Assembly: GCA_025774555.1 (NCBI GenBank)
Contig: JALGVT010000003.1
Span: 72,654 to 136,653, forward strand
DNA length: 64,000 nucleotides
Origin: a candidate division LCP-89 bacterium
Lineage (GTDB): Bacteria; Electryoneota; B3-LCP
Direction: 5' to 3'
The notes under the pieces were generated by a model. That model saw only the letters and a program-made list of their open reading frames with translations. It searched no databases and was not told where the DNA came from. The position numbers were made by a program, and so were the translations under genes. Each line of letters begins with the position of its first letter. Position 1 is the first letter of the stretch. Shown one piece after another: positions 19,974 through 64,000 of this stretch.

Positions 19974-20873
19974 ATGAGTGTACTGGTAGTTGGATCAGCA
20001 GCGTTGGATTCAGTTAAAACGCCAACGGGTGAAGTAACGGACGCTTTGGGCGGATCGGCGTTTTACTTTGCCGCCGCGGCGAGTTACTTCAGTCCGGTGA
20101 AAATCGTTGCGGTGGTCGGTGAAGATTTCCCAATGGGAAAAATAGATTTTTTAAAAGAGAGAAATGTCGATCTAAAAGGTTTGGAAGTCGCTCAGGGGAA
20201 AACTTTCAGGTGGTCAGGCATCTATCACCAGGACATGAATCAGCGCGATACGCTCTCTACGGAATTGAACGTCTTCGAGAGCTTCTCGCCCAAACTTCCG
20301 GACGAATATCGACAAACACCATATATCTTTTTGGCGAATATCCACCCTGCGCTGCAGTTGGACGTTCTCAATCAGGTGGATAATCCTCGTTTTGTCATGC
20401 TGGACACCATGAATCTCTGGATCGATACCGACCTCGAGGGGTTGAAGAAAGTGATGGCAAAGCTCGATGCCATTATACTGAACGACCAGGAAACACGGCA
20501 GATCACCGGAGAGAACAACTTGATAAAAGCGGCTAAAGAGGTAACAAAACTGGGACCCACAACCGTCATTGTCAAAAAGGGTGAGCACGGCGCATTCATA
20601 GTCTCTCAGGACGATTTTTTCGCACTACCGGCATTTCCCATCGAAAACCTTTTCGATCCGACAGGAGCAGGGGATTCATTTGCGGGCGGTATGATCGGGT
20701 GTCTGGCTAAGCAAGATAATCTGTCCGCTGATAATTTCCGTAGGGCGTTGGTATATGGCACGGTAACGGCTTCATTTACGGTGGAAAAATTCTCTATTGA
20801 CAGATTACGCGAAATCACCATGGATGACATTGAATCACGCTACCAGAAAATGCAGGATATGACGAAGTTCTAA
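19974..20873 (+). CDS. PfkB/ribokinase-family sugar or sugar-phosphate kinase
   Basis: N-terminal GG motif (DALGGSAFYFAAAA) and C-terminal DPTGAGDSFAGGMIG anion-hole motif. Confidence 0.85.
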   Translation: MSVLVVGSAALDSVKTPTGEVTDALGGSAFYFAAAASYFSPVKIVAVVGEDFPMGKIDFLKERNVDLKGLEVAQGKTFRWSGIYHQDMNQRDTLSTELNVFESFSPKLPDEYRQTPYIFLANIHPALQLDVLNQVDNPRFVMLDTMNLWIDTDLEGLKKVMAKLDAIILNDQETRQITGENNLIKAAKEVTKLGPTTVIVKKGEHGAFIVSQDDFFALPAFPIENLFDPTGAGDSFAGGMIGCLAKQDNLSADNFRRALVYGTVTASFTVEKFSIDRLREITMDDIESRYQKMQDMTKF

Positions 20874-45652: not shown

Positions 45653-45760
45653 TTAACCATGAGGTGGTGAGTTAAACAATTGGATACGCCGTATTCTCCT
45701 GTGAATGATCTCATTAAACTGGTTATATCATTGCTGATGTATTTATGACTACTAAATGGT

Positions 45761-45805
45761 AAAAACATCAATCGTGGCCTCTGGGTGACCACGATTGATG
45801 TTTTT
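45761..45805. terminator. Bidirectional rho-independent terminator (17-bp perfect stem)
   Basis: AAAAACATCAATCGTGG ... CCACGATTGATGTTTTT with an 11-nt loop; T-runs on both strands; sits right after the minus-strand gene that ends at 45847. Confidence 0.7.
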
Positions 45806-45846
45806 GGCTGGTATCTGGTCGATAGCCTTAGATTTTACTCGTATTG

Positions 45847-47967: not shown

Positions 47968-48039
47968 TTCAGGTTCCTTTCAGTCGAATTTATCTTTTTG
48001 ATATTCACTTTATATAATTGGTTTACTTGAGAACATAAG

Positions 48040-51000
48040 TCATTCCCAGGTAACTCTGTAAAAATAGACGACGTTCAGAAGTGCATAGAGGTCTAAGTAT
48101 TGCGAAACTGCAGTACTATCTATAGGTGATATCCCTGTTGTTTCGAAGTAGGGATCGGTAGAGCGGTAGATGTAATAGACTGATGCACCTGCCATATCAC
48201 TCCAATCTAACAAGACGTCTAAGTCCGACAATGATAAAGTCAGGTCATCAATCGCCTGAATATCGTTTGAAACGATGATATCGATAACATATGGATCCGT
48301 ATAGTTGAAAGTAAACTGAGGCGTCTGCAACAGGTCAACGGTACCACCAAAATGTTCGACACGCGCAGAATACCCAGCAGGCAGAATCGATAGAATATTA
48401 TCGAAATCAACCGTTACCATTCCCTCTTCAGATGCTTCGATAATGCCTTCCCAGGTTTTTACGGATGAAGAATCAAGCGGCGCGCGGGTATCAGTGCTGA
48501 AAATATCTCCCACAGGTGCGAGCCATTCGGGATGATAGAAGACCAGGCGAATATAATCTCCACTGGGTGGAGTCGGTGGCGCAGACATATCGTACCATAC
48601 GTCATATTCATCTGTGGCATTATAATGGACTCCGATCCCCGGAAGATAATCAGACAGATTTCCAAGCGTGACCTCAATCTGAACGAACCAATCATCCTCT
48701 TCATCAGAATTATCTGCTATCATGGGCAATGGTATTTTTTCGGATACTGGAGAGTAGGTCAGCATTTGTAAGCCTGACGATAAAGTCTGCAACCAGTAAC
48801 CTCCCCAGGAATGCAGAGAATCGCTCGATTGGTAGCTCCCCATGGAATTATTATATTGGTACACCGCTGGTGAAATCCATCCGCTATTGACGGCATCGTT
48901 GAATGATTGCGTTATTATACCATTTGTGAAATGAAGAGACTGTAGTAAGATCGGATCAGAATAGGCCGCGCCTACAATATTCCAGTTTAAATCGAGTGGT
49001 AGGAGTGTTGAGTCTCCGGGAACAGTACCCGTCAGATCGACAGCGGCTCCGTTTTCCAGGGCAAGCCAGTAGCCAGCTCCATGCTCAACCTCATCAATCA
49101 GTTCATAACCATATATTTGCGAATATTCATAGACATAGTAAGCACCGGTGATATCATCACCGAAGATGCTGTCGATATTGGCGTATTCCGGGATCAACGG
49201 AATACTCATCATATGCCATCCGGAGCTGAAAACGTGCTCAACATAGACGGAGATGCTGTTCAACAGGTTCATAGAATCAGCATGAGCCTCCAATATCGAA
49301 ATTGTTGAAGTGTGTGCTGGATAGTAAACTCCAAAACCATCGTAATCAGGATAATCATCATGGTATAATATCCAGAGATTGGATCCCGCTGAAGAGTTAC
49401 CTGCTTGCGCCCCAGCAAGGATGACATCCAACCAGCTCTGGAAATACTGGTTGCGAGTAGATATTGGCTGTGATTTGCCGTATTCTTCTAAAATCAGCGG
49501 TTTTCCCAGAAGGGCATCGGTGTCCGCGATATGATCATTTGTCCAGTTAATAGAGGTTGTTAAATTCATCCCCCACCAGTCCGGCCAAGCATGATAACAA
49601 GCAAAGTCAATAGCTTCAGGTTGGTGATTCCGGATAAAGTCAACGCCTTTACTTTCCATCCAGCCGCTGGGATTGTGAGCTGGTCCTGTTGGCCCATAAA
49701 AGCCTTCCGAGCCTGTGGTTACCATATGCAGCGAATCAATTGACTTGATATAAACTGCGGTCTCTTCAATCCAGGTCTGGAGGATATCACCACCCGCATC
49801 GGATGTGCATTCAGGTTCATTTGCCAGTTCCCAGGCAAAAACGGTTGGATCCTCCTTATAGACACGTCCATTGAAGACGTTGACGCGATTAAGAACAGTA
49901 TTTACGTGATTTTCATACCACTCGATACAGAGTTCATCCTGGTAGAAATCATCATGCTCACCTGAAGTTAGCAGGGTCTTCATCTGATCGGAGTGAGATG
50001 ATATTATCGCAATCGTACTCACATCGGAATCATAAACGCTATACCAGCCTTGATGTTCGTGTGGTGGATCTCCAATCCAGGGATCGCCAATGCTCCAGTA
50101 ACTTCCATAGGGTAAAACCGGTCTCCCTTCACCAGCCCAGGACCAGATATTCGTCCCTGCGGCCGGCTGTCCAGAAGATGCCGAAGTATACACTTCATCA
50201 AACATAGCATTGAAGAAAGTATTTCGCCATGTTGTTGACGAACTTGGATCGTAGCTCTCGCTGTCGCGTGCAAGTCCGAATTCTTCAAGCACCATCGGTT
50301 TACCCAGAGAAACAGCTTCAGCTTCGTGATTGTTGAAGTACGTTATTGCAGATGCTTCCGAGCTTGCGTATGTACCGCCCGGATTTGCAGGATCGTACCA
50401 GCCCCAGTTTTGTGGCCAGATATGAATGGTGGTATAGTCGATATCAGGACCGTTGTGGTTCTGGATAAAGTCTAAACCATTCCATGAAGGCCAGGGGGTG
50501 TCACCTTCGCAGCCAGTAGTAACGAGATGATTTGAATCCAAGGATTTGATATAAGCGGCACAATTATCAATCCAGATGTTGAACGCTGCAGCGTTGTTGT
50601 TGAAGCCTCGCGGTTCATTGCACAACTCCCATGACATGATAGCAGGTTCATCACTATATGTTGTGCTCGTATATGGATTTGTGCGGTTGATGATGAAGGC
50701 AATGTGATCCTCAAAGTCCTGCATCGCCCCTGCATTTGAATAGAAGTCCGAGGCGTAATCCTGGAAAGCATCCCAGCTTCCTCCCGGCTCGGGAGGCGGA
50801 TATGGAATTGGACCGCCACCATTCCAATTCACATATTGAGCCATACCTCCCGACCATTGCCAGAAGTTATTCAAGCACATTACCGCTCGAATACCTCGCT
50901 GTTTCATGGCGTAAATAAGGTAATCCAAACCATCGAGAACGTCGGGATCATAAACGCCCGGTGAGGTCTGAAAAGAAGGCACCATACGCCAGGGCTCGGT

Positions 51001-51666
51001 GTCAGGACCTTCCGAACCTGTCATGATGCGCAGATTCGTTATTCCAATCGCTTTAAGAGAATCCAGTTCACGATTAAGTCTATCTCTATCACCTCCGGAT
51101 CCGTTGGAAGCGAGGTTTAATCCGTACCAGTAGTTGGCGCCGACGTAGTAATACTTCCTGCCACCGATTTCGAAATGAGTGCCATTCACTTCGACGAAGC
51201 CGGAAGTCCCCAGAGTATAAGCTGAATCCGCCCAATCGACATACTGATTCATGCCGCCGTAATCGTCCCAATTGTTTATGAACGGCAGGATAAGCCTGAT
51301 ACCTTCTAGATCAGCTTTATGGAGCACATAATCCAGTCCCTGGAAGACATATTCCTGGTAAATTCCCGGGCTGGTCTGCAGAGAGTTCCACTGTGTCACA
51401 CCATCATTAAAAGCCCAGGTGCGCAGAACAGACATATCCATTGCCGCTATCTCTTCGATGACCTCATCCACCGCATAGCGAAGTCCCATATCAGCGGCAT
51501 AGACCATCTGGTAGTAATTATTGGCGCCGGCGTAGTAAAAGGGATTTCCATTCAACGTGAAATGGTTACCATCGCGCGTGGCGATTCCAATATTCTCCGC
51601 GTTAGCAGAGAAAATGAAGACCATAATACTGGGTACCAGGATGAGGTGCTGGATAAATCTGGTCAT
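48040..51666 (-). CDS. Multi-domain family 5 glycoside hydrolase (beta-mannanase-like) with a second GH5 domain apparently inserted into the first
   Basis: Signal peptide. GH5 mannanase strand motifs appear in order: VLRTWAFNDG, ILPFINNWDDYGG...YVDWA. A complete second GH5 domain follows (YYYVGANYWY, NLRIMTGSEG, MCLNNFWQWSGG, WELCNEPR, TTGCEG, IHIWPQNWG, LEEFG). Then come the remaining strands of the first barrel (FAWELANEPEC, VTTGSEGFYG, YHAWPDWWG, LILEEYGKS). A roughly 440-aa C-terminal region shares modules with the 706-aa neighbour. Confidence 0.8.
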   Translation of the reverse strand: MTRFIQHLILVPSIMVFIFSANAENIGIATRDGNHFTLNGNPFYYAGANNYYQMVYAADMGLRYAVDEVIEEIAAMDMSVLRTWAFNDGVTQWNSLQTSPGIYQEYVFQGLDYVLHKADLEGIRLILPFINNWDDYGGMNQYVDWADSAYTLGTSGFVEVNGTHFEIGGRKYYYVGANYWYGLNLASNGSGGDRDRLNRELDSLKAIGITNLRIMTGSEGPDTEPWRMVPSFQTSPGVYDPDVLDGLDYLIYAMKQRGIRAVMCLNNFWQWSGGMAQYVNWNGGGPIPYPPPEPGGSWDAFQDYASDFYSNAGAMQDFEDHIAFIINRTNPYTSTTYSDEPAIMSWELCNEPRGFNNNAAAFNIWIDNCAAYIKSLDSNHLVTTGCEGDTPWPSWNGLDFIQNHNGPDIDYTTIHIWPQNWGWYDPANPGGTYASSEASAITYFNNHEAEAVSLGKPMVLEEFGLARDSESYDPSSSTTWRNTFFNAMFDEVYTSASSGQPAAGTNIWSWAGEGRPVLPYGSYWSIGDPWIGDPPHEHQGWYSVYDSDVSTIAIISSHSDQMKTLLTSGEHDDFYQDELCIEWYENHVNTVLNRVNVFNGRVYKEDPTVFAWELANEPECTSDAGGDILQTWIEETAVYIKSIDSLHMVTTGSEGFYGPTGPAHNPSGWMESKGVDFIRNHQPEAIDFACYHAWPDWWGMNLTTSINWTNDHIADTDALLGKPLILEEYGKSQPISTRNQYFQSWLDVILAGAQAGNSSAGSNLWILYHDDYPDYDGFGVYYPAHTSTISILEAHADSMNLLNSISVYVEHVFSSGWHMMSIPLIPEYANIDSIFGDDITGAYYVYEYSQIYGYELIDEVEHGAGYWLALENGAAVDLTGTVPGDSTLLPLDLNWNIVGAAYSDPILLQSLHFTNGIITQSFNDAVNSGWISPAVYQYNNSMGSYQSSDSLHSWGGYWLQTLSSGLQMLTYSPVSEKIPLPMIADNSDEEDDWFVQIEVTLGNLSDYLPGIGVHYNATDEYDVWYDMSAPPTPPSGDYIRLVFYHPEWLAPVGDIFSTDTRAPLDSSSVKTWEGIIEASEEGMVTVDFDNILSILPAGYSARVEHFGGTVDLLQTPQFTFNYTDPYVIDIIVSNDIQAIDDLTLSLSDLDVLLDWSDMAGASVYYIYRSTDPYFETTGISPIDSTAVSQYLDLYALLNVVYFYRVTWE

Positions 51667-51694
51667 CTTTGTCTCGGGATCATTTATGTTTCAG

Positions 51695-53341
51695 TTATAG
51701 TTGATCGAACTCGCTTGGATCGATCAGAAGGTGGGGTGTGATCAATACGACCACTTCGGTTTTCTCGATTTCGGTAGTAGTATTTCCGAAAAGGTAGCCT
51801 AAAATGGGGATGTCTCCCAGGAAGGGGATGCGGTTTCTCGTCTCTCGCTTGTTTTCGGATACCAGACCACCGATACCAATGGTCTGTCCATTGTCAATCT
51901 GCACCCTGGTCTCCACTGATCTCACGCTGGTTACCGGCAGATCTGTGGCGCCGGATCCAGTGACGTCGCTGACCTCAATCACGATATCTGCCGTGATGTT
52001 GGCTTCACTGCCGACATAAGGCGTGATCATCAGCATGATGCCGGTAGCTATTTTTTCCAGGGTCACATAGCTGTAGGCAGAAGATCCCTGGAGCAGTGAA
52101 TAATAGGCTTCCTTCCCAATGCGAATTGCGGCTTCCTGTCCGTCAGAGGTAGTGATGCGGGGGTTAGCGCGGATGTTTGCCTGATCTTTTATGGCTAATG
52201 CCTGAAGTGCTAAACGCAGATCGAAGACCATACCTTGGTGGTGATCTCCGGTTCTGAACATTTCGCTTAAGAAGAAGGATGTGTCGCTGTAAGAGGGCAG
52301 CAGTTTTGACAGTTTGAACGCATCATTCCCTTTCGTGCCTGACCAATCCCATTCCAAACCGAGCGAACGCCTGGCTTCGTCGCCCATCTCCACGACAAGT
52401 GCTTCTATCAATACCTGCTGAGGGGGGTGGTCAACAGCAGCTAACTCCTCCTTGAAACGGTCGATGATTGCAGGGGGAGCAGATATAACCAGCGTATTGG
52501 TTTTTTCGTTCACCTTAATAAAATTATTATAATAGTCGGGTATGAGTTTAGGAACTTCAGCCGCCGGAAGGTGCTTGGGCTTGACCGCCTCTGTCTGCGC
52601 CAGTAGAGGGAAAGAGGGATTGTCAGCCACCGGCGCGCCGACGATGTAATAGTTTTCAATTTTACGGTAACTATAACCCATCGGCGACAGGATCAGACTG
52701 AGCGCCTGTTCGAGGGGTACGTCGATTATATCAAGCGTTATGTAACCTCTCACCATGGCATCCGGAATGATGGCAATCTCTGTCTGTGCGGAAAGATCCA
52801 TCAGCGCCTGGCGGATATCCGTTTCATAGAAGGAATTGGACACCAGCGGTCCGGAGTGATTTGAATCGGTCATAGAAGGCTCTTCACCGGAATCATTCTC
52901 CTGCCCCTGGAGCTTCTTCAACGCGGCTACACCCTGCTCTGCGCTGCTCTCCCAACTGGCGAGTAGAGGATAATTGGCTTCCACCCGTGGAAAATACTGC
53001 CTCAGCAGGTTGAAGCACCGCGCTGCTTTAACCGGGTCTCCCAGCGCTATATTACACCGCCCCAGCAGATACAGCACTTCGTCCATCCGGTAGTACGATG
53101 GCTCCTGCTGTCCGGTGGATCGCAACAGGTCCGCGGCATCCACGTAATCGCCGGAATCCATCAAGGTGGTGGCTCTCTCGATTATTCCGCTGATACCATC
53201 AGGATATATGCTCTCCATTTCCTGCGGCAGCAGGGGGGGTGACTGCGTGCAAGAAAGGATAAGTAATCCGAGTGATAGCGCGCAACAAACGGGAACCCAT
53301 GAGCGTATAATTTTATAGAAGCGGTTGTAGGGACGTATCAT
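51695..53341 (-). CDS. Secretin (GspD/PilQ family) with N-terminal lipoprotein TPR-like (pilotin-like) region
   Basis: Lipobox LILSCTQS, then a TPR-like segment and secretin N-domain (FYETDIRQALMDLSAQTEIAIIPDAMVRG). C-terminal secretin motif IPFLGDIPILGYLFGNTTTEIEKTEVVVLITPHLL. Confidence 0.8.
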   Translation of the reverse strand: MIRPYNRFYKIIRSWVPVCCALSLGLLILSCTQSPPLLPQEMESIYPDGISGIIERATTLMDSGDYVDAADLLRSTGQQEPSYYRMDEVLYLLGRCNIALGDPVKAARCFNLLRQYFPRVEANYPLLASWESSAEQGVAALKKLQGQENDSGEEPSMTDSNHSGPLVSNSFYETDIRQALMDLSAQTEIAIIPDAMVRGYITLDIIDVPLEQALSLILSPMGYSYRKIENYYIVGAPVADNPSFPLLAQTEAVKPKHLPAAEVPKLIPDYYNNFIKVNEKTNTLVISAPPAIIDRFKEELAAVDHPPQQVLIEALVVEMGDEARRSLGLEWDWSGTKGNDAFKLSKLLPSYSDTSFFLSEMFRTGDHHQGMVFDLRLALQALAIKDQANIRANPRITTSDGQEAAIRIGKEAYYSLLQGSSAYSYVTLEKIATGIMLMITPYVGSEANITADIVIEVSDVTGSGATDLPVTSVRSVETRVQIDNGQTIGIGGLVSENKRETRNRIPFLGDIPILGYLFGNTTTEIEKTEVVVLITPHLLIDPSEFDQL

Positions 53342-53412
53342 ATATCTTCTCGATTTTTATCTACTTCAGACTATGCTCTTTGACATAGTCCCTAAAAACC
53401 CGTTAATGTACT

Positions 53413-55038
53413 CTATTTCAATCCTTTAGGTGTTGTCGTAGTGCTGGTAAAGCTTACTTCGGAGCGCTCCCAGACCGGCTTTTTGCCTAAAGTGACAAAT
53501 TCGGCTTTTACAAGGAAACCACCCTGATCCAATGGCGGCAAGGTCATGCGGAACTCGCGTGAAGATCCCGGCAGAATAATTTCCTCCTGATCTTTGCCCA
53601 GATTCATGAAAGCGATCACCTGTCCATTGGTTCGTTCCAATTGCAATTTGCCCTTGAAGGTCGCGACTTTTCCGCCGCTGTTATAAATTGGCACTACTGC
53701 GGTCGTAGGGTTGGCACCCTCTACGGGGTAAATCAGATTGGGTTTGCTGACCTCCAGCTTTGACGGAGGAGATTTGGGATTCTTGGCTACCAGCAGAACC
53801 CCAAATTCCGCACCGCTCACGCGCCCACCAACTGTCAATGGACCAGTGGCGTTGATGCGTACTGCTTTCACGAATGCGCCAAAACCGGTGGTATCGCGTG
53901 GCACCTTGACCTGAGCTTTGATAGAAGCGGTACGTTTTGATTCTATAGATACAGTTTCCGGGGAGATACTTATCCAATCATTGCTCTCCTGAATCTTTGC
54001 AGGGAATGTAAGGGATCCATCCACTTCCATTTTCACATCGGAGACATAAGCTCGAATTTCAGTGGTACGCTCGTCTCTGTTCTGAATCCTGATGGGAACA
54101 GTGCGCACCGCGCCGGGTGTGAGTGTTAGTTCAACCATTTGGGGATTGACCGACATATCCAGATCGAACTCGGACCTGGTCAGGATTTTACTGGAAACGC
54201 TCTTGCCTGTCAAAGAAGCTGGAACTTCGAATTCCAGATTGCTGACTGAACGTATCGCACCGTTCAAAAGCAAACGTACCTCAGCTCTGTATTTACCAGG
54301 ACTTGGAACTTCCGTGAGAGGACAAATAAGATCAACCTCATAACCAGGATATATTTCAAACGGTTTACCCCCTGGCCTGAAGGGAATTGGAACTTTAGTA
54401 GGAAATATACTTGTAGGTCCATAGAGGAGCATATCCCCAGTAACATCCAATCTCCAAACGCCTGGATTTGAGGCTAAAAGACTTATGCAATAATTATCCT
54501 TTCCTGTCACTGGAACAAGTTTCATATCCTTAACTTCTATATTCGTTTTGCCTCTTCCCAGTACCATCGCCTCAATTTTTATAGAAAGAGCAGGTCGTAC
54601 TAAAACGGCAATATTAGCAGATGGTCGCTCAGGCTGAACCTGTATTATAATATAAGCATAATAGTGACCTGGATTGGCAGTGGGATAGGTTATCGTAATC
54701 GGGATGTCCATTGATCCACCAGCCGGGATTTCTAACTCTTCGGCTACAGATATCCAAGACGCGCAGGATTGATATCCAAGGCCTGCATCTACGACCTGAA
54801 TAGTTCCTTCGTTACTCTGGTTGAGATCCCTGACTTCTATAGTATATCTTGATGTTGCTGTTGTGTTGGTTGCAGCCAATATGAAACTGGAGTTGACTCT
54901 TTGCCCTGGATTGCCTTGCAACTGTATATGTGCAGGACTTATCCCAAATCCTCTACGACTTTCTTCTTGTGTCTGTGCTTCAGAAAGTGAAAGCGCAAAA
55001 AATATGGATGTGAAAATTAGGATAGTACTTTTTACCAT
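53413..55038 (-). CDS. Hypothetical secreted 541-aa beta-rich protein (predicted multiple Ig-like/beta-sandwich repeats)
   Basis: Signal peptide MVKSTILIFTSIFFALSLSEAQTQ; recurring ...ISP...I.L...G...V... strand-like patterns; no catalytic motif. Transcribed just upstream of the secretin gene. Confidence 0.5.
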   Translation of the reverse strand: MVKSTILIFTSIFFALSLSEAQTQEESRRGFGISPAHIQLQGNPGQRVNSSFILAATNTTATSRYTIEVRDLNQSNEGTIQVVDAGLGYQSCASWISVAEELEIPAGGSMDIPITITYPTANPGHYYAYIIIQVQPERPSANIAVLVRPALSIKIEAMVLGRGKTNIEVKDMKLVPVTGKDNYCISLLASNPGVWRLDVTGDMLLYGPTSIFPTKVPIPFRPGGKPFEIYPGYEVDLICPLTEVPSPGKYRAEVRLLLNGAIRSVSNLEFEVPASLTGKSVSSKILTRSEFDLDMSVNPQMVELTLTPGAVRTVPIRIQNRDERTTEIRAYVSDVKMEVDGSLTFPAKIQESNDWISISPETVSIESKRTASIKAQVKVPRDTTGFGAFVKAVRINATGPLTVGGRVSGAEFGVLLVAKNPKSPPSKLEVSKPNLIYPVEGANPTTAVVPIYNSGGKVATFKGKLQLERTNGQVIAFMNLGKDQEEIILPGSSREFRMTLPPLDQGGFLVKAEFVTLGKKPVWERSEVSFTSTTTTPKGLK

Positions 55039-55116
55039 TTGACTTTCCCTTCAATTATAACCATTGTATGCCTGGGAGATAGAAAGCTCCCAGACATACC
55101 TTATTAGGCCAGACCT

Positions 55117-55911
55117 TTAGGGCACACTAAGAGTTACATTAAGATTAGCGGTGTAAACGCCCGCCGGATCAGACATACCATTTCTTTCTACCCTACCATG
55201 GAATGTGAAGGTACCCCTAACATATTGGTTCATTGCTAGAGTGTACGTAGGAGAGCCGGCCATGACCCATGCTTTCTGCGTTGGGAATTCGTTAAAAGGA
55301 TTAACCAGACCTGGCCACACAGCACTGGGAGATTCGAGACCAAAGTCAGTGCCCGCAACATTGGAAAGGTACTGACCGTCATTCCACCCAAACGGGGGTA
55401 CGCCTGCAGTCCAACCACCCATATATGTTGTTCCGTTTGCTATGAAGCCGCCCACATCCCACCACGCTGCTGCTGCAGTGAAGTATGATGGGAGAGTAAA
55501 AGACCCATTAGTAAGATCTCCGGACGGTGTAATTTGAAGGTTCATTCCACCATTGCTGGTTACATAGATATCTGCCCAGTCTCCGGACTCCCAGTACTTT
55601 GCTGATGGGGCTGGAGTCGTGGTGGGATCACCAGACCATGGATCGGTTGCATACGTTTTGAGGCCTGGATCATTGCCACTACTATAAGCGCTGCCCTCAA
55701 TTGCGGTTGTGTTCCACCAGTCATATCCTGGTCCCTGTTCCGGAGCAACTTGACCATTTGGTCCGAAAACGATGTTCATGTCTTGCCACTGGACATCAGA
55801 CCACACCGGTATGTCTAGCGTGACAACTACAGTGCCGGTGTAGGTGATAGGCTGTGCAGACACAATACCTGCAAACGCCAGGACAACAAGAATTATTAGT
55901 GCTTTTCGCAT
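55117..55911 (-). CDS. Hypothetical secreted 264-aa Gly/Trp/Thr-rich protein
   Basis: Signal peptidase I-type signal (AGIVSA|QP); Trp- and Gly-rich (8 Trp, many GxxG); no class III (prepilin) signal. Confidence 0.5.
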   Translation of the reverse strand: MRKALIILVVLAFAGIVSAQPITYTGTVVVTLDIPVWSDVQWQDMNIVFGPNGQVAPEQGPGYDWWNTTAIEGSAYSSGNDPGLKTYATDPWSGDPTTTPAPSAKYWESGDWADIYVTSNGGMNLQITPSGDLTNGSFTLPSYFTAAAAWWDVGGFIANGTTYMGGWTAGVPPFGWNDGQYLSNVAGTDFGLESPSAVWPGLVNPFNEFPTQKAWVMAGSPTYTLAMNQYVRGTFTFHGRVERNGMSDPAGVYTANLNVTLSVP

Positions 55912-56179: not shown

Positions 56180-56662
56180 TTAATCTCGAGATTCTTCTCC
56201 CTCAATATCAGCGCCTGGCTTCTTATCACGAAGCCGCGCCTTGCCTTTGTTCTCGATTTGTTCCTTAATGGATTGCCTTTGCTGGCATTCTTCCAGCCAT
56301 TCAGCCAACTTTACCAGCTTGATCGGTTTCTTCAGAACCTTATATCCCAGCTCCTCAGCTACCTGTTCGTAATCTTTCAGCCATTCATCGATAATCAGGG
56401 CGATATTGTCGATCTTGAAGCCGCTGTTCAGCAGTAGTTCCGTGAATTCCAATCCGTCCATGATCCGCAGATTCAGCTCACAGATCAAGACGTCCAGGCG
56501 CAAATAATCGTTTGCTTCAGATTCTGGCGGCTTCGCTTTCGGCATCGGATAATATGAGGGATCCTCATAAGGTTCAACCTCATAACCATACACCTCCAGC
56601 ATCTCCACAATCTTGGACCGAACGTGTAAGTTTCTCTCAATAACGCAGGCTTTAGGTTTCAT
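56180..56662 (-). CDS. Single-domain response-regulator receiver-like protein with atypical phosphoacceptor site (Glu in place of Asp) and a charged C-terminal tail
   Basis: Aligns to CheY-like receivers: KACVIERNLHVRSKIVEML..., DVLICELNLRIMDGLEF (CheY DWNMPNMDGLEL, so Asp57 corresponds to Glu), KKPIKL (Lys109 conserved). The usual acidic pair near the N-terminus is ER. Confidence 0.55.
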   Translation of the reverse strand: MKPKACVIERNLHVRSKIVEMLEVYGYEVEPYEDPSYYPMPKAKPPESEANDYLRLDVLICELNLRIMDGLEFTELLLNSGFKIDNIALIIDEWLKDYEQVAEELGYKVLKKPIKLVKLAEWLEECQQRQSIKEQIENKGKARLRDKKPGADIEGEESRD

Positions 56663-56806
56663 GAATGAATCCTACTGCACATTTCCATGATTTTGTTTGC
56701 TATTTTATCAGTGCCATACGCCCACTGGTAGTGAATTGATCTGTAGATAGACGATACAGGTAAATCCCCGAGGCTATATTTCCAGCATCGAATGTAACCT
56801 GGCACT

Positions 56807-57871
56807 TTAATTTCCAGTTATCCCCTGCAAGGATATATTCCCCCGGTAACTGCCGGCTACGTCCGCCATGGTGATATCGATGTTGAAACGGAGAATAATC
56901 TCTTCGTTAGGCCTGCAGTGCCGTGAACCACTCCTGGCTACTTCGTTGCTGCTGCCCAGGTTGCCGCTATCCAGCACGTCGCCAGAGGGGCTGACCTGCG
57001 TCCAATGTATTCTGTCTGCTGGTATCTCACCGCGCTCGCTCGTGAGATTGCTTGTATTCGCCAACACTCTCCACTTGCGCGAATTTGTGATGACCTTAAA
57101 GCGGACTTCCTGCTGTGCCTGATAGGTTCCTTCCGGACCATCACCCTGGAAATCCAACTCCCCACCGCACAAGAAAGCTATCTCCATGATTTCGGGGATT
57201 GTGAGGGCGACATGTACCTGGCCAGGAAGTCCCTGAAAGGGCGTTCCTGCACCCGGTGTTGGTGTGAAGTGTTGACTCGGACTTGGATCAAGACCTTCAC
57301 CTTTACGATTAGAAGAGGTCTTTCTTGCAGAAAATTTTGATGTATGTGTTTTTATTTTTGGCCCTGAAGGCGTCAGAACCAGGGTGCCATGATATTCACC
57401 CGGCGGGTCCTGCCAGGTGGGACGAACTTCTATTGCAATCTCAGTATCCTTAACAGGCATTCCAAGGTTGCCGATCACGACTGGTATGGGTTTGGTTAAA
57501 GGTGTGAAAGCACCGCCGGTCTCTTCAGTTTTTATCCATAAGCGGTCAGGCGGGAGAGCGCCTTCCGGTCCCTCCAGATTAGTTGGGACAATAGTAGCAC
57601 TCCATTCAGGCAGATAGGATTGTACTCTCAGTTTGAGAATGCCGCTGCTGATCCAGGGAGCATGTTCATAACCCCCTTGAGGTCCAAATTCCAAGCGAAC
57701 CTGATCGCTCTCGGGGATGATCTGAATGAAACCATTTTTGAGCACGGGTGACGCGGGAGAAATTTCCTGTCCATACGCGTCATTACGGGTAGCAAGGAGG
57801 AGCGCCAAAATCAACAGCAGCCCGCATATGGTGTAGATCACTAATCTTTTCGTGATCTTGATTCTTTCCAT
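56807..57871 (-). CDS. Hypothetical secreted 354-aa protein
   Basis: N-terminal transmembrane/signal segment (LVIYTICGLLLILALLLATRNDAYGQ); Pro/Gly-rich middle section; no recognisable motif. Confidence 0.5.
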   Translation of the reverse strand: MERIKITKRLVIYTICGLLLILALLLATRNDAYGQEISPASPVLKNGFIQIIPESDQVRLEFGPQGGYEHAPWISSGILKLRVQSYLPEWSATIVPTNLEGPEGALPPDRLWIKTEETGGAFTPLTKPIPVVIGNLGMPVKDTEIAIEVRPTWQDPPGEYHGTLVLTPSGPKIKTHTSKFSARKTSSNRKGEGLDPSPSQHFTPTPGAGTPFQGLPGQVHVALTIPEIMEIAFLCGGELDFQGDGPEGTYQAQQEVRFKVITNSRKWRVLANTSNLTSERGEIPADRIHWTQVSPSGDVLDSGNLGSSNEVARSGSRHCRPNEEIILRFNIDITMADVAGSYRGNISLQGITGN

Positions 57872-58900
57872 GGCTGATTTCCTCCAACCTTTTATGGAGC
57901 AGATGATGGAAAAATACTGTTCTGCAAAATTCTGCGGATTGAATAAGCAGATCCCCGAGAATAAGTCAAGGAATGGTAGTTTTAACTTGATTTCTACAGT
58001 TTAAATTTGTATATTAAAGAGAGTTTGCCCCGTCCCTAATGCTAGGGGTGAATCTCTTGAGCCGGTTTCAGAGGTGCTCCTACACACGCTCTCTTGGAAT
58101 CGGCTCTCCTGTTTTACTCAATTAGATAACGCTTATTAAATATGTTCCTCTACTCACATCCCAATAAGTAGATTTAGAATTAATTCATCCTATACAAGAA
58201 ATCGCCCTGAAAAGAAAAGCCCTCTTGCGAAGTGCAGAAAGATTCCACACTCGAGAGAGGGCAAAGCAATTCTAAGAGTAGCTTTCTAATGACTAACGAA
58301 AACAAACTTTGAGATTTATAAGGCGTAGTTTTAAGATTCATAACAATTTCCTGAAGTAATTCCTTTCACCTGGATATTGAAGCGCCTTACACCCGATATA
58401 TAAAAAAGCAAAAAAGACACAAACGTATCCGCCGAATCAGTGCCACGGATCTGTTTATGCCTTCGACTTACTGGCCCATACGTCCAATCCGACAAGGCGG
58501 CTTGCCCTGAAATATGCAAGCCTTCCCAAAATCAGGGATATACAATATACAAAACTATTTTGGAGAAGTCAAGCATTTTTTTTAAAAACATAAATAATTT
58601 TTCATTTGTCATTATAGGCAGCATTCATAATTCGATAAATTGACATAATATCATGATATTCCCGAACTTCTTCTTGCGAGAATCAAATTCATTTCTTATT
58701 GTTTTACATTCCATTTGAGATTGAACATACAGGACAAGAATAAGACAAAAACCCAGTTGTTTGAAGAAGTCTTATCCAGCGCATGTTAGAGCCTGCACTA
58801 ATCCCTGAAAACAAGACATTTATAAAGGAGCTTTCAACAGAGGTGTTCCTTTTGACCGTGAAGCCAAGTTTATACGTATGAAGGAAGATCACAAACGTAA

Positions 58901-58947
58901 CGGACTCATAATCCGTCGGTCGTAGGTTCGAGTCCTACTGGGCCCAC
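58901..58947 (+). pseudogene. 3' fragment of a tRNA-Met/Ile2 (CAT anticodon) gene: anticodon arm, variable loop, T-arm and 3' acceptor strand only
   Basis: ACGGA-CTCATAA-TCCGT anticodon arm (loop C-U-CAU-A-A), CGGTC variable region, GTAGG-TTCGAGT-CCTAC T-arm, TGGGCCC acceptor 3' strand plus discriminator A. The 26 nt upstream (ACGTATGAAGGAAGATCACAAACGTA) cannot form the matching 5' acceptor strand (GGGCCCA) or a D-arm. Confidence 0.55.
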
Positions 58948-58979
58948 AGTAAATAGACGATATTGTCATTACAAAAATA

Positions 58980-59019
58980 ACAGGAACCTGTAAGCTGCAC
59001 AGGTTCCTGTTATTTTCTA
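58980..59019. terminator. Bidirectional rho-independent terminator (13-bp perfect stem) ending the minus-strand NifX-like/ATPase operon
   Basis: AACAGGAACCTGT / ACAGGTTCCTGTT with loop AAGCTGC; flanked by AAAAAT and ATTTTCT; 22 nt after the stop of the gene at 59042. Confidence 0.7.
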
Positions 59020-59041
59020 TGCTATCATATATAAGCAAGCG

Positions 59042-59956
59042 TCACAATGCTTCGATTTTTTCCTCCAGTTGGTTCCAAAGCTGCTTAATGTCTTCGGCAA
59101 CTCCGTTGTTTGAATATTCCACTACGCTGATTCCCGCAATCTGCGCTTTTGTGAAGGCGCTATCGTAACGAATTTTGCCGATAACTTTCACTCCGTCAGC
59201 TAAAGCTTCATTTTCGATTTCGTTTGATATTTCCTGGTTTAAATCGCATTTGTTAATGCAGACGACCATGGGGATACTGAAGTGGCGCGTTAATTCGGCG
59301 ATACGCTTCAAATCATGCCGCCCGGCGACCGTTGGTTCGGTAACGGCTAGAACGAGATCAGCTCCAGTAAGGGAAGCTATGACGGGACAACCCACTCCCG
59401 GTGAACCATCGATGAAAAGATAGTCGATACCGGTCTCCTCGGCTAATTTCTTCGCCTCGTTTCGCACCAGAGTTACCAGTTTTCCAGAATTTTCTTCAGC
59501 TATCCCCAGACGGGCGTGAGCCATAGGTCCGAAGTGGGTATCTGAGCTGAACAGTTCTCCACAAATCGGAGTTTCCATCTCGATAGCTTTCTCGGGACAG
59601 AAAAAGGAGCATACTCCGCACCCCTCGCAGGCAATTTTATCTATTTCGTATTCGCAGTTGTTCGCTTCGATAGCGGGATCAAGCTTTTTTACGGCGTCAA
59701 AGCGGCACAGGTCATAGCATATTCCGCATGACGTGCATATTTCGGGATCTATCTTTGCCTTGTATCCAGCGCGAAAATCCTCATGATGGAGGATTTTCGG
59801 CTTCATAATGAGGTGTAAATCAGCCGCGTCCACATCGCAGTCAGCCACCACAGCATTATGCGCTAAAGCAGCAAGCGAAGCTACGATGCTGGTTTTTCCG
59901 GTGCCTCCTTTGCCGCTGATGATAACTATTTCTTTCATTTTACTGTTTTGCAGCAT
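59042..59956 (-). CDS. MinD/ParA-superfamily P-loop ATPase with inserted 2x[4Fe-4S] ferredoxin module (COG1149-type)
   Basis: Deviant Walker A ISGKGGTGKTS; two CxxCxxCxxxC(P) motifs (CTSCGICYDLC and CEGCGVCSFFCP) inserted in the ATPase fold. Confidence 0.8.
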   Translation of the reverse strand: MLQNSKMKEIVIISGKGGTGKTSIVASLAALAHNAVVADCDVDAADLHLIMKPKILHHEDFRAGYKAKIDPEICTSCGICYDLCRFDAVKKLDPAIEANNCEYEIDKIACEGCGVCSFFCPEKAIEMETPICGELFSSDTHFGPMAHARLGIAEENSGKLVTLVRNEAKKLAEETGIDYLFIDGSPGVGCPVIASLTGADLVLAVTEPTVAGRHDLKRIAELTRHFSIPMVVCINKCDLNQEISNEIENEALADGVKVIGKIRYDSAFTKAQIAGISVVEYSNNGVAEDIKQLWNQLEEKIEAL

Positions 59957-60294
59957 TAATGATCACAGACATTATTACCTGCCTCGAGATTACCATCGAT
60001 GTATGCTTTTGCAACATTTTCAGGGTAGTCCGGAAAGGCTCCCACTACAACTTCGATGCCATATCCCCGAAAGAAGTTCTGCGCCATTTGTCCCATACCT
60101 CCTGAGATGATGGTGGTAGCACCTTGTTCGCTGAGCCAGCGGGGAAGCACCCCCGGTTCATGAACAGGTGGGGTTAGGGTCTCATTGGACACAATATCGT
60201 TGTTTTCGGGATCAACGCTAATCAATGCGAAATGTTGACAGTGGCCGAAATGAGCACACAGCTTTCCATCTGCAACCGGTATGGCGATTTTCAT
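59956..60294 (-). CDS. NifX/NafY/NifB-C-terminal-like dinitrogenase FeMo-cofactor-binding family protein (small)
   Basis: MKIAIPVADGKLCAHFGHCQHFALISVD... family pattern. A GAGGA ribosome-binding site precedes the ATG at 60294; the longer ORF to 60324 has a weak site. Its stop overlaps the next start. Confidence 0.75.
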   Translation of the reverse strand: MKIAIPVADGKLCAHFGHCQHFALISVDPENNDIVSNETLTPPVHEPGVLPRWLSEQGATTIISGGMGQMAQNFFRGYGIEVVVGAFPDYPENVAKAYIDGNLEAGNNVCDH

Positions 60295-60377
60295 TCTCTT
60301 TTCCTCTGTTTTAGTTAAATTCATTTTACTTTCAATTTGATTCTCGATAAATGAATGGATTGTTCGATTCTATTTAA

Positions 60378-61247
60378 TTATCGTATAGTCTCTTCTTGTA
60401 TTGGCTTGAATCTCATTTTGATAGAGTCCACCAAGCGCTTGAATAACAGTTCGTATTGCGGCAGTGCGTCTACTAGAAGCTCCCCTCGTGAGTAACTTTC
60501 CGCAATCTTACGGTCATCAGGAATTTCGGCGATCAGATCAATATCTTCTTTCCGGCAGTAATCGTGTACCCGGTCGTCGCCTGAACCAGCGCGGTTCAGA
60601 AGAACAGAATATCGTAAATTCAGTTTCCTAACCATTTCGACAGCCAATTTCAAGTCATTCAATCCAAAAGGAGTCGGCTCGGTAACTAAGAGGACATAAT
60701 CTGAATCTTTTACCACCTCAACAACAGGACATGAGGTCCCGGGTGGAGCGTCGATGACTGCATGCTCATTTGCTGGAATGGCACGCTTTACTTCACGAAT
60801 GAGAGGAGGGGACATAGCTTCGCCGATGCGCAGTTTCCCACTGACGAAATTAAGATCGCCGGCGCTGCCGGTCTCTACAATCCCAATATTACGAGGGATT
60901 TCCTTTATGGCTTTAGGTTCACAAACCAAACTGCATCCACCGCAGCTATGGCATAATTCCGGGAAAGTAAGCGGCTTACCAGCTAAGACCACAATAGCGC
61001 TGAAATTGCAGATTTCTCCGCACTTGCCGCAGCCGTCGCATAAATCAAAATTCACCTCGGGGACCAGCGCTCCAATTTGTTCTGTTTTTTCTATCGAGGG
61101 CTTAAGGAAAAGGTGACCATTCGGTTCTTCGACGTCGCAATCTGCATAGGTTACCTTTTCCTCCAAGCGCGACCAGGCGACGGCTAAGTTAGCGGAAACA
61201 GTAGTCTTACCAGTCCCGCCTTTTCCACTGGCGATGGCAACTCTCAT
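60378..61247 (-). CDS. Second MinD/ParA-superfamily ATPase with ferredoxin insertion (COG1149-type)
   Basis: IASGKGGTGKTT P-loop; CDGCGKCGEIC and CHSCGGCSLVCEP 4Fe-4S motifs. Confidence 0.8.
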   Translation of the reverse strand: MRVAIASGKGGTGKTTVSANLAVAWSRLEEKVTYADCDVEEPNGHLFLKPSIEKTEQIGALVPEVNFDLCDGCGKCGEICNFSAIVVLAGKPLTFPELCHSCGGCSLVCEPKAIKEIPRNIGIVETGSAGDLNFVSGKLRIGEAMSPPLIREVKRAIPANEHAVIDAPPGTSCPVVEVVKDSDYVLLVTEPTPFGLNDLKLAVEMVRKLNLRYSVLLNRAGSGDDRVHDYCRKEDIDLIAEIPDDRKIAESYSRGELLVDALPQYELLFKRLVDSIKMRFKPIQEETIR

Positions 61248-61289: not shown

Positions 61290-61544
61290 TCAACCCTGTC
61301 GGGTTAGAGTAGTGCCACATGAGGCACACTGCATTGCGTTGCATGGCGTGCCACTTTGGTGTGGAACGACGGCGCCACATTTAGGGCAGATACAATTACC
61401 GCCCTGACCAAGACCTCTGCCGCCGCCCATACCACGACCACCACTCTGACCACCTCCTCTACCAGAGCCCATGCCGCCACCTTGACCGGCGCCGCGACCA
61501 CCACCTTGACCGCCTGCTTTATTACCTCCACCACCCTGAGGCAT
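61290..61544 (-). CDS. Small Gly/Arg-rich protein with C-terminal Cys-rich zinc-ribbon-like motif
   Basis: MPQGGGGNKAGGQGGGRGAGQGGGMGSGRGGG... low-complexity N-terminus, then CICPKCG...CNAMQCASCG. Lies within the minus-strand operon; the plus-strand ORF over the same DNA is low-complexity nonsense. Confidence 0.5.
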   Translation of the reverse strand: MPQGGGGNKAGGQGGGRGAGQGGGMGSGRGGGQSGGRGMGGGRGLGQGGNCICPKCGAVVPHQSGTPCNAMQCASCGTTLTRQG

Positions 61545-61640: not shown

Positions 61641-62039
61641 CTATTTCTTTTCTGTAGATGCTTTCAGTTCGTCTATGCGTTTGTTAATTTCGCTCATAGC
61701 ACTTTTTAAGCTGTCTGCCTGAGCTTTCAGTCCTTCGATCTCCTGATCTTTGGTCATTGGCGCCATTGGAAGCGCTGCCCCATACCCCTGATAATAATCC
61801 GGGTAAGCAGCTCCGTAGTAACCGTAACCTGGTCCACGTCCGCCACCCCAGGCTCTGCCTCGTCCACCACCCCAGGGCTGACCGCCGCGGCCTGCGCCGC
61901 GATTACCAAAACCATAACCATAACCACTGCCTGGTACGTTATTCATGTATCCGGGAACATCGTATCCGGCGCAATAACCGGCTCTTCGTCCAGTCATCGG
62001 TCCTGCGCCCTGAGGACCTGTTCTATCTCCACGTGGCAT
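61641..62039 (-). CDS. Gly/Tyr/Arg-rich protein with C-terminal coiled coil (resembles the uncharacterized Gly-rich proteins found in NifX-like/Mrp-like clusters of anaerobes)
   Basis: MPRGDRTGPQGAGPMTGRRAGYCAGY...GGGRGRAWGGGRGPGYGYYG... then QEIEGLKAQADSLKSAMSEINKRIDELKASTEKK. Confidence 0.5.
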   Translation of the reverse strand: MPRGDRTGPQGAGPMTGRRAGYCAGYDVPGYMNNVPGSGYGYGFGNRGAGRGGQPWGGGRGRAWGGGRGPGYGYYGAAYPDYYQGYGAALPMAPMTKDQEIEGLKAQADSLKSAMSEINKRIDELKASTEKK

Positions 62040-62078: not shown

Positions 62079-62438
62079 CTACCAATGACTTGCCACATCT
62101 GCCGAAGAAGCGAATTGATATTCGCCCTTCTTAAATTTATCAATAGCTGTTTTTACCGAACCCTCAACACCGTGAACGATTTTTACTCCTGCGGAAGTTA
62201 ACGCTCGAAAAGCTTTCGGTCCACAATGACCTGTGAGCAGAACTTCGGCTTCATTTTTAACAATCGCTTCAGCCGATTGAATTCCCGCTCCGCTTGCCGC
62301 CTGTAAATTTTGATCATTGTCTATGGGGAGTATCTCTTCCGTTTCGGTATCAACAAGCAAGAAATATTGCGCGCGCCCGAAGCGAGGATCAACTTCTGAT
62401 TCCAGATTAGTTCCAGTAGCGGTTATAATAATTTTCAT
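62079..62438 (-). CDS. NifX/NafY-like FeMo-cofactor-binding family protein
   Basis: MKIIITATGTNLESEVDPRFGRAQYFLLVDTE...LLTGHCGPKAFRAL...VKIV pattern of the PF02579-type family. Confidence 0.75.
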   Translation of the reverse strand: MKIIITATGTNLESEVDPRFGRAQYFLLVDTETEEILPIDNDQNLQAASGAGIQSAEAIVKNEAEVLLTGHCGPKAFRALTSAGVKIVHGVEGSVKTAIDKFKKGEYQFASSADVASHW

Positions 62439-62461: not shown

Positions 62462-62845
62462 TTAACTTGTTCTATTTCCGCGTCTGCGGCGATATCCTCT
62501 GCCTTGACCGCAACAACCCGGCATTCTGTAACAAGGCTCTGAAAGGCGATCCGCGATAAATGCCTTTAATACGTCCTCTACGTCGCCAATCAGCCAGGGA
62601 TGAACCTTAATTTTTTGATTAACTAAAAGGTTCATGAACATATCTGATACGGCGCCGCATAACACGTCATCAACACCGTTTCTTTTCAACGATATCGCGC
62701 GTTCTGAAATAGGATCGCGTTCAATCGGCAACTTTAGACGGTTAATTTCACTTTGCTGGTCGAAATCCACCAGAAGTATTTCTCTGGCTACGTCCAACAC
62801 AGGTGAAATTCTATTACCCCACACGGGGATTGCTATGCGCATCAT
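62462..62845 (-). CDS. NifX/NafY-like family protein with Cys-rich, Arg-rich C-terminal tail
   Basis: MMRIAIPVWGNRISPVLDVAREILLVDFD... family pattern; tail CYRMPGCCGQGRGYRRRRGNRTS. Confidence 0.7.
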   Translation of the reverse strand: MMRIAIPVWGNRISPVLDVAREILLVDFDQQSEINRLKLPIERDPISERAISLKRNGVDDVLCGAVSDMFMNLLVNQKIKVHPWLIGDVEDVLKAFIADRLSEPCYRMPGCCGQGRGYRRRRGNRTS

Positions 62846-62872
62846 TCATGCCCTTATCTTACCATGAATATG

Positions 62873-62888
62873 TGCAATCATCGTGCCG
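62873..62888 (-). promoter_or_regulatory. Sigma-54 (-24/-12) promoter GGCAC-N5-TTGCA for the NifX-like/ATPase operon
   Basis: Plus strand reads TGCAATCATCGTGCCG; the minus strand therefore reads CGGCACGATGATTGCA, matching TGGCAC-N5-TTGCA. It lies about 30 nt upstream of the ATG at 62845, with an AAGGG ribosome-binding site between them. Confidence 0.6.
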
Positions 62889-63032
62889 ATAGGGATAAAA
62901 TGATATAAGTTGTTTTTATTATATTATTAATTAACAATTTAAGAAAACAGGCGAGGTGTGTATATTTTTAGAGGGGCGTATTACAGTATCAGTAATGCAA
63001 CTATAGATCAGAATAACGTCGCAGCAACGCTA

Positions 63033-64000
63033 CTATTTATGATGCCTGCTATTCCTGCCATCCATATCGGGAAGGGTGATGTTCAGTTTGTGGATTTTTC
63101 GGTAGAGAGTAGTTTTGTGTATGCCCAGTTCTTTTGCGACTGCGGTGCGATTCCAGTTGTTTCGTTCCAGAGCAGTTGTTAAGAACTGCGCTTCCAATTC
63201 TTCCATAGTCTCTGCGGTAGATGCGGAGGCGGTTTTACTGGCTAAGAGTCCATCAGGAAGATGCTGGGCAAGAATGATTCCTCCGCTGCAAAGCACGAAA
63301 GCGTGCTCGAGGACGTTCTCCAGTTCCCTTATATTCCCGGGATAATCATGGTTCATTACAATTTTTAGCACATCAGGGGAGACGCCGTTGATATCCTTGC
63401 CATGAATCTGGTTGAGTTTTCCAATGAAATGTTCAATCAAGAGTGGAATATCCTCCTTACGGTCACGCAAAGGCGGCAGTATCATATGGATAATATTGAT
63501 TCTGTAAAATAAATCGCGCCGAAATGATCCTTTCTCCACAAGCTCGGCGAGATTCTGGTTTGTGGCGGCTATTATGCGCACGTCAACTTTAACAGTTTCC
63601 ACGTCGCCTAAAGGTTCGAAAGTTCTTTCCTGTAATACGCGTAACAGCCGAACTTGTAGGGCGGAAGAAACGTCTCCTATCTCATCCAAGAATAAGGTCC
63701 CGCCGTCAGCTAATTGGAAGCGTCCCGGTTTGTCTTTCCTGGCGTCGGTAAAAGCGCCTGCTTTATAGCCAAACAGTTCGGATTCGAGAAGCGTGTCTGG
63801 AAGAGCGCCGCAATTTACTGTAATCAGCCGTTTATTTTTTCGAGAGCTTAGATTGTGGATAGCTCGAGCGATCAGCTCTTTGCCCGTTCCACTTTCTCCT
63901 TCAATTAAAACAGTACTATCACTGAGGGATATTGTAGGCAGAATCTCGAATATTTTCTGCATTGCAGGGCTTTTACTGACGATGTCCTCAAATGAGTAGC
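63033..64000 (-). CDS. Sigma-54-dependent transcriptional activator (AAA+ sigma-54 interaction domain plus Fis-type helix-turn-helix), 5'-partial at the window edge
   Basis: GESGTGKE Walker A, ESELFGY, GAFTDA, and C-terminal TAVAKELGIHKTTLYRKI. The frame continues upstream past 63962 (...YSFEDIVSKSPAMQKIFEIL...) to the window end. Confidence 0.85.
   Translation of the reverse strand, partial: YSFEDIVSKSPAMQKIFEILPTISLSDSTVLIEGESGTGKELIARAIHNLSSRKNKRLITVNCGALPDTLLESELFGYKAGAFTDARKDKPGRFQLADGGTLFLDEIGDVSSALQVRLLRVLQERTFEPLGDVETVKVDVRIIAATNQNLAELVEKGSFRRDLFYRINIIHMILPPLRDRKEDIPLLIEHFIGKLNQIHGKDINGVSPDVLKIVMNHDYPGNIRELENVLEHAFVLCSGGIILAQHLPDGLLASKTASASTAETMEELEAQFLTTALERNNWNRTAVAKELGIHKTTLYRKIHKLNITLPDMDGRNSRHHK

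Follow-up and report, generated by a model that had tools for sequence, protein, structure and literature searches.

A probable sigma-54 promoter between an activator gene and a predicted seven-gene operon

The window analysed here is a stretch of 64,000 nucleotides (nt) from contig JALGVT010000003.1 (assembly GCA_025774555.1) of a candidate division LCP-89 bacterium, and our subject is a probable sigma-54 promoter close to its end, together with the activator gene and the operon that lie on either side of it. The activator gene (63033 to the window end) and the seven genes that follow it (62845-59042) are all on the minus strand and separated by small gaps, and from these small same-strand gaps we infer that the seven genes form one operon. 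The original prediction for this locus had proposed a near-consensus sigma-54 motif about 30 nt before the first gene of a "NifX-like" operon, an adjoining AAA+ sigma-54 activator whose N-terminal sensory domain was cut off by the window, and activator-binding sites at 62889-63032, from which it concluded that the operon is probably enhancer-dependent and signal-controlled.

The motif is present as described. On the minus strand, positions 62888-62873 read CGGCACGATGATTGCA, with GG at 62887-62886 and GC at 62875-62874, and the GG-to-GC distance of 12 nt places the two elements in the -24/-12 register (one helical turn) within a TGGCAC-N5-TTGCW context. Its 3' end lies 27 nt from the ATG of gene 1 (62845), close to the distance that had been proposed. 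It is the sole match in the window with at most one mismatch to TGGCACGNNNNTTGCW (TGGCACG-N4-TTGCW), and a scan with a sigma-54 weight matrix, an approach already suggested with the original prediction, gave it the best score (15.3 bits) among the 128,000 window positions on both strands, with the matrix trained solely on homologous promoters from other loci. By chance, 0.59 sites per window (128 kb, two strands) would be expected to fit the pattern, and 0.38 to reach the matrix score; one site of such quality somewhere in 128 kb is unsurprising, and what is rare is its location, as the chance expectation inside the 187-nt gap on the operon strand is only about 0.0006. Counting the standard 12 nt from the C of the GC element, transcription is predicted to start at 62862 (+/-2 nt) on the minus strand, which would give a leader of 17 nt with AAGGG at 62855-62851, five bases 5' of the ATG. 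The second- and third-best matrix scores in the window are at 4784-4799 (minus strand, 14.5 bits) and 20756-20771 (plus strand, 13.5 bits); both of these sites are within coding regions and are probably chance matches.

To place the promoter among related loci, species-representative genomes were searched with an alignment of the activator's PAS domain, which yielded 577 relatives, and 80 loci were kept. Among the 58 non-window loci with a homolog of gene 1, 32 carry a sigma-54 motif in the sense orientation (at most two mismatches, at most 150 nt upstream), compared with one on the antisense strand and 0.25 in shuffled sequences. The distance from motif to projected start codon is 9-30 nt in most loci. 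Orthologs of the first gene in many phyla are thus preceded by such a promoter, and it is this conservation, more than the quality of the match, that makes the window promoter credible. We believe that CGGCACGATGATTGCA is very probably a genuine sigma-54 promoter. The pairing of activator and operon is conserved as well: of 81 loci with the activator, 49 have a gene 1 homolog directly downstream of it on the same strand and three have one divergently, while other orp-like genes (see below) are found inside the locus in 10 more. Activator and orp genes are therefore linked in 62 of the 81 loci, with the tandem layout of the window the commonest among relatives.

Two further observations concern the promoters of these relatives. 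In the closest relative (L084:2190-2215), a second GGCA motif overlaps the aligned promoter 13 nt upstream. In eight loci of Planctomycetota type (L005, L013, L015, L016, L026, L068, L069, and L072), only 9-10 nt separate the end of the -12 element from the start codon projected for the gene 1 homolog, so that these loci would produce leaderless sigma-54-dependent mRNAs, provided that the projected starts are correct.

The open reading frame (ORF) at 63033 matches the Pfam families Sigma54_activat (E 6e-70), AAA_lid_14, and HTH_8 and contains both GESGTGK and GAFTDA (the latter at window position 63758), which bears out the AAA+ sigma-54 activator of the original prediction. A public full-length protein of 457 aa (P0001) is 100% identical to the window fragment over 321 residues, and because of this identity we take the window (63033-64000, minus strand) to encode residues 137-457, the 3' part of an OrpR-like activator. 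The sensory domain that had been expected beyond the window end is found there in P0001, whose N-terminus matches PAS families and holds a triad of cysteines in the spacing Cx8Cx3C (C57, C66, and C70) with D59 at position C+2. The architecture is that of an OrpR-type regulator, with PAS, AAA+ (Sigma54_activat), and Fis-type helix-turn-helix (HTH) domains. These marks are shared by nearly all full-length homologs, with the Cx8Cx3C triad in 116 of 116, D or E at C+2 in 114, and GAFTDA in 113. A search of the PDB returned no OrpR-like PAS structure, the best matches being LOV-type PAS domains (E 8e-5). Nor is there a model for OrpR in NCBIfam, where all activator equivalogs scored under their cutoffs. 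A scan of the window found only one sigma-54 activator gene, the one at 63033.

The 5' region of the activator gene was read from L087, a 2.2-kb contig of a near-identical strain. About 400 nt past the window end (L087:439-486), there is a good dyad, TAGCATTATTGCAA, at 10 nt from the start codon (ATG) of the activator gene itself; another element containing TTGCA is found 20 nt further upstream, and similar dyads are found just 5' of the activator gene in L007, L009, L034, L065, L076, and L085. Dyads in this position, as read in the sequence, suggest autoregulation.

Candidate enhancer elements in the intergenic gap

The sigma-54 holoenzyme requires an AAA+ activator bound upstream, and integration host factor (IHF) or intrinsic bends aid looping. 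Upstream of the relatives' promoters, the palindrome TTGCA-N3/4-TGCAA (at most one mismatch) occurs at 40 sites against 0.38 expected. Most loci have two copies of this dyad, one starting some 100-116 nt and the other some 134-148 nt before the first base of the -24 motif, with a distance of 32-33 bp between them. The half-sites are separated by N3 in the loci of Planctomycetota and Firmicutes and by N4 in those of Zixibacteria, Ignavibacteria, and several deltaproteobacterial loci, and the dyad-to-dyad distance stays at 32-33 bp among L004-L086 despite this change in spacer.

In the window gap there is no near-perfect TTGCA-N3/4-TGCAA dyad, and we therefore compared it with its closest relatives, L084 and L085, whose activators are 75% and 72% identical to that of the window, and L087, whose gap sequence is identical. 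Aligning the window with L084 and L085 brings out four conserved blocks, namely two dyads, an A+T-rich block, and the promoter. The first block has the form TAGC(G/A)-N4-TGC(G/A)(A/T) and abuts or overlaps the activator stop codon in all three sequences. In the window it is the candidate distal activating dyad TAGCGTTGCTGCGA (63019-63032, minus strand), which directly follows the stop codon and whose counterparts, matched column by column, are the L084 sequence TAGCATAATTGCAT and the L085 sequence TAGCGAATTTGCAT. Its first base is 144 nt from the -24 motif and 32 bp from the start of the proximal dyad, on the upstream side of both, a spacing like that of the relatives. This site was preferred to another candidate for the distal dyad, TTGCTGCGACGTTA (63027-63014), because of the two only 63032-63019 lines up with the L084 and L085 dyads and preserves the distance of 32 bp.

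The second block, T(T/A)GCA-N4-(T/C)GATACT(A/G)TA, is common to the same three sequences and contains the candidate proximal dyad TTGCATTACTGATA (62987-63000, minus strand). This dyad begins at -112 relative to the -24 motif, and relatives of the N4 type have TTGCA-N4-TGCAA at -112 or -113; its centre is at about -131 from the predicted transcription start. Within the A+T-rich spacer is an IHF-like site, AATTAACAATTTA (62929-62941, plus strand), centred at about -73 from the predicted start and differing from WATCARNNNNTTR by one mismatch. One-mismatch matches to WATCARNNNNTTR number 134 in the window against 122 expected, so that the site is weak when taken alone; in the alignment, read by eye, the same columns of L084 and L085 also match WATCARNNNNTTR with one mismatch. 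Both dyads and the IHF-like block keep their positions in L084 and L085. The promoter has an activator gene next to it and, 112 and 144 nt upstream of the -24 motif, two sites at which the activator is predicted to bind, within the range of 80-150 nt expected for a sigma-54-dependent promoter.

The operon encodes an orp-type gene cluster

Directly behind the promoter is gene 1 (62462-62845), the conserved first gene of these loci. It encodes a protein of 127 aa with a Cys/Arg-rich tail and a weak Nitro_FeMo-Co-like domain (Pfam E 3.5e-4, under the curated cutoff), and a search of the PDB gave no match. Gene 2 (62079-62438, 119 aa) is a homolog of the orange protein (ORP/Orp8), with a Nitro_FeMo-Co domain (E 2.6e-21) and a best PDB match, at E 3.9e-23, to 2WFB, the ORP of Desulfovibrio gigas. 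It is followed by gene 3 (61641-62039), encoding a DUF5320 protein of 132 aa (Pfam E 1e-23) that is found in the same clusters in relatives, and by gene 4 (61290-61544), an ORF for an 84-aa Gly/Arg-rich protein with only a sub-threshold Pfam match, whose C-terminal Cys-rich segment resembles a zinc ribbon and which has homologs at the same position in relatives. Gene 5 (60378-61247) encodes a MinD/CbiA-type P-loop ATPase like Orp3/Orp4 (Pfam CbiA, ParA, and Fer4), with two CxxCxxCxxxC ferredoxin motifs read in its translation. Gene 6 (59956-60324, 122 aa) encodes a Nitro_FeMo-Co domain on its own, the equivalent of the C-terminal part of MrpORP (Orp9); it covers positions 259-365 of the NCBIfam profile NF041136 (E 7.8e-38, 130.7 bits against a cutoff of 450). 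Gene 7 (59042-59956) encodes a second MinD/CbiA-type ATPase like Orp3/Orp4, again with two 4Fe-4S motifs by Pfam and translation. All seven genes are on the minus strand, and on the same strand, just past the last of them, the operon is closed by a strong intrinsic terminator with a 20-bp stem followed by a U run (58968-59017; -28.5 kcal/mol, z -7.4), with none of 200 shuffles folding as well. The cluster thus has an Orp8 homolog (gene 2) and two ATPases with a pair of CxxCxxCxxxC motifs each (genes 5 and 7).

The region beyond the operon holds other features. Just past the terminator, in an ORF-poor gap (57872-59041), is a degenerate tRNA-like element (58874-58938, plus strand) that has a CAU anticodon loop and a T arm without an acceptor stem, scoring 29.7 bits with Rfam and receiving no call from ARAGORN; it may be the remnant of an integration site. 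Further along, on the minus strand at 56180-57871, two genes sit between the orp operon region and a secretin cluster; the product of one (160 aa) matches a receiver domain at a sub-threshold score only, and that of the other (354 aa) matches no family. The latter is a run of large genes on the minus strand (43631-55911) that includes a secretin with TPR (51695-53341), a pair of proteins carrying sorting tails for type IX secretion, and three ORFs (1208, 541, and 264 aa) without a Pfam match.

OrpR and the orp1 and orp2 operons of Desulfovibrio vulgaris Hildenborough were reportedly described by Fievet in 2011. The OrpR gene (DVU2106) is flanked by two divergent orp operons, which are sigma-54-dependent and are activated by OrpR together with IHF (PMC3897727), and chromatin immunoprecipitation sequencing (ChIP-seq) found these operons to be its only targets (PMC8359166). 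The conserved cysteines C52, C61, and C65 of OrpR are required for sensing, and D or E at position 54 is also conserved; in D. vulgaris, redox control depends on the triad, which goes together with a [4Fe-4S] cluster. Expression becomes constitutive when OrpR lacks its PAS domain or these cysteines, and its binding to DNA is unaffected by oxidation (PMC8359166 for all of these). Its loop has been listed as GAFTDA, an unusual variant of GAFTGA (PMC4641369). At the orp1 promoter, the activator site is at -131 and a functional IHF site at -79 (PMC3897727). The Orp proteins include the orange protein Orp8, the paralogous ATPases Orp3 and Orp4 with two ferredoxin motifs each, and the two-domain MrpORP, or Orp9 (PMC6345978).

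By these published marks the window activator is like OrpR, since it shares the PAS/AAA+/HTH order, the Cx8Cx3C triad, the acidic residue at C+2, and GAFTDA. As in Desulfovibrio, a sigma-54 promoter stands before orp genes next to the gene of the activator, and the predicted targets include an orange protein as well as ATPases of MinD type that each carry a pair of 4Fe-4S motifs. The upstream region is also laid out like that of orp1, with a palindromic site of GCA-N-TGC core about 130 nt upstream and an IHF-type site between it and the promoter. Other aspects differ. In place of two divergent three-gene operons flanking the regulator there is a single tandem operon of seven genes, and the fused MrpORP (Orp9) is represented only by its C-terminal domain as a separate gene. 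Relative to the described Desulfovibrio orp genes, the window apparently adds the DUF5320 protein and the Gly-rich Cys protein. Unlike the Desulfovibrio site GGGCGYRTTTTGCGCCC, the window dyad is A+T-rich, T(T/A)GCA-N4-TG(C/A)(A/G/T)A, and only the GCA-N-TGC core is common to both. The host, finally, is outside the Deltaproteobacteria, in a lineage (LCP-89) of the FCB group. In the window, one marker gives a rough placement of this kind: its arginyl-tRNA synthetase shares 65% identity with that of a candidate division LCP-89 bacterium and about 50% with proteins of KSB1 and Calditrichota; the type IX sorting-tail proteins mentioned above are encoded nearby. Taken together, the window locus is very probably a further copy, in another phylum and largely ordinary, of the OrpR/orp redox switch known from Desulfovibrio.

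Interpretation of the locus and breadth of the regulon

Several of our results weigh against an OrpR-type promoter and enhancer at this locus. Both window dyads are degenerate, each having two mismatches to the family dyad by manual count (for the distal one, to TWGCA-N4-TGCAA), and a repeat search of the gap returned A+T-rich palindromes only and neither of the dyads, which are recognised solely by comparison with the relatives. The gap at 62889-63032, where upstream sites had been expected, does hold these two candidates, and they stand where the relatives have clear palindromes. The Desulfovibrio OrpR motif itself was not found in the window at three or fewer mismatches. In L084, the closest relative, GT replaces GC at -12 of the aligned promoter. 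The RpoN box was not found in the 64-kb window, and rpoN is absent from it. Lastly, no terminator was predicted in a scan between the activator gene and the operon, so that read-through from the activator gene could add sigma-54-independent transcription of the operon.

If the motif were a chance match, the operon would be served by this read-through or by a sigma-70 promoter in the A+T-rich gap, and the absence of a predicted terminator, together with the expectation of such a match in about a third of 128-kb sequences, fits that explanation. We nevertheless consider it very improbable, because the expectation at this particular position is so low, the motif is conserved in a strand-specific manner in independent loci of different phyla, the dyads are conserved at enhancer distance, and no site resembling a sigma-70 promoter turned up when the operon strand of the gap was scanned. 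It is harder still to credit the locus as a nitrogen-fixation cluster, in which a cofactor carrier of NifX or NifB type would be controlled by a NifA-like activator. The resemblance is real in some respects, as nif promoters share with this one the sigma-54 motif, upstream activator sites, IHF-assisted looping, and targets of the Nitro_FeMo-Co fold, the domain is present in three of the gene products here, and the NifA model TIGR01817 gives the activator a score of 350 bits. That score, however, is far under the cutoff of 528.85 and covers only the shared AAA+ core, and NifA proteins carry a GAF sensor domain where the window activator has a Cys-rich PAS. The best structural relative of the gene products is ORP (2WFB) rather than NifX, and no nifHDK, nifEN, or nifB was found among the ORFs scanned against Pfam (eleven ORFs between 21012 and 39062 were left out). 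The "NifX-like" label of the original prediction is therefore replaced: the cluster is an orp (orange protein complex) cluster without relation to nif.

The remaining alternative concerns the signal, since a real promoter might be driven by a different activator, or the activator might sense O2 or nitric oxide directly, or a metal such as Mo, W, or Cu that is related to the orange-protein cofactor. Redox sensing is deduced from the shared Cys and Asp positions, the window dyad differs from the Desulfovibrio OrpR site, and neither a solved structure in the PDB nor a dedicated NCBIfam model represents this type of PAS domain, all of which leave room for another signal. We regard this alternative as unlikely, however, as the Cx8Cx3C triad and the acidic residue are invariant or nearly so in the 116 homologs, and the triad has its demonstrated role in the redox control of D. 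vulgaris OrpR, where it accompanies the [4Fe-4S] cluster (PMC8359166); the adjacency of activator and operon in most loci and the single activator gene of the window also argue against it.

We consider it likely that promoter, activator, and operon are related to one another as an OrpR/orp-type module, with activator binding, in vivo sigma-54 dependence, and the start site as predicted elements of that relationship. The view that the operon is enhancer-dependent and signal-controlled is supported by the conserved promoter, the PAS-bearing activator, the gene linkage, and the dyads. Under this model, the activator would bind the two dyads behind its own stop codon (63032-63019 and 63000-62987) whatever the redox state, and the A+T-rich spacer with its IHF-like site would bend the DNA. 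ATP hydrolysis by the activator would then open the closed complex of sigma-54 polymerase at 62888-62873, with transcription starting near 62862, covering the seven-gene orp-like operon (62845-59042), and ending at the terminator (59017-58968). By analogy with D. vulgaris OrpR, redox is the moderately probable signal of the activator: a redox-sensitive [4Fe-4S] cluster in the PAS domain may keep the AAA+ domain in a permissive state while the redox potential is low and block it on oxidation, and the orp genes would then be produced only under reducing conditions. In other activators of this general kind the sensors are different, with a GAF domain containing non-heme iron in NorR and an aromatic-binding domain in DmpR, unlike the Cys-rich PAS, presumed to bind Fe-S, of the window activator. 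The negative control of the AAA+ domain by an N-terminal sensor, predicted here and demonstrated for OrpR (PMC8359166), would be shared with activators of the NorR and DmpR type.

Loci of this kind were found in Zixibacteria, Planctomycetota, Lentisphaerota, Ignavibacteria, Gemmatimonadota, Acidobacteriota, Nitrospirota, Desulfotomaculum-type Firmicutes, and many Thermodesulfobacteriota. In a 2021 paper, OrpR was said to be a regulator that "seems to be restricted" to Deltaproteobacteria (PMC8359166); related loci in so many phyla argue against this restriction, and a 2025 survey of sigma-54 regulons makes no mention of orp or OrpR. We would give an even chance to the broader proposal that OrpR/orp is a widespread regulon of anaerobes across many phyla, including LCP-89-like lineages, with a strongly conserved enhancer geometry (a pair of dyads at about 100 and 135 nt before the -24 element, at a distance of 32-33 bp from each other), a switch between N3 and N4 among clades, a half-site re-tuned to TGATA in the clade of the window, autoregulation of orpR, and leaderless transcripts in Planctomycetota. 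The comparison corrects the published impression of OrpR as confined to Deltaproteobacteria, and the family-wide dyad TTGCA-N3/4-TGCAA differs from the single site that has been defined experimentally. For the window itself, an anonymous "NifX-like" cluster of an uncultivated bacterium of the FCB group can now be assigned to a characterised redox-controlled system, with exact coordinates for its promoter, enhancer, bend site, and terminator. So broad a distribution speaks for this conserved regulon as part of the core of anaerobic life and not as a peculiarity of sulfate reducers.

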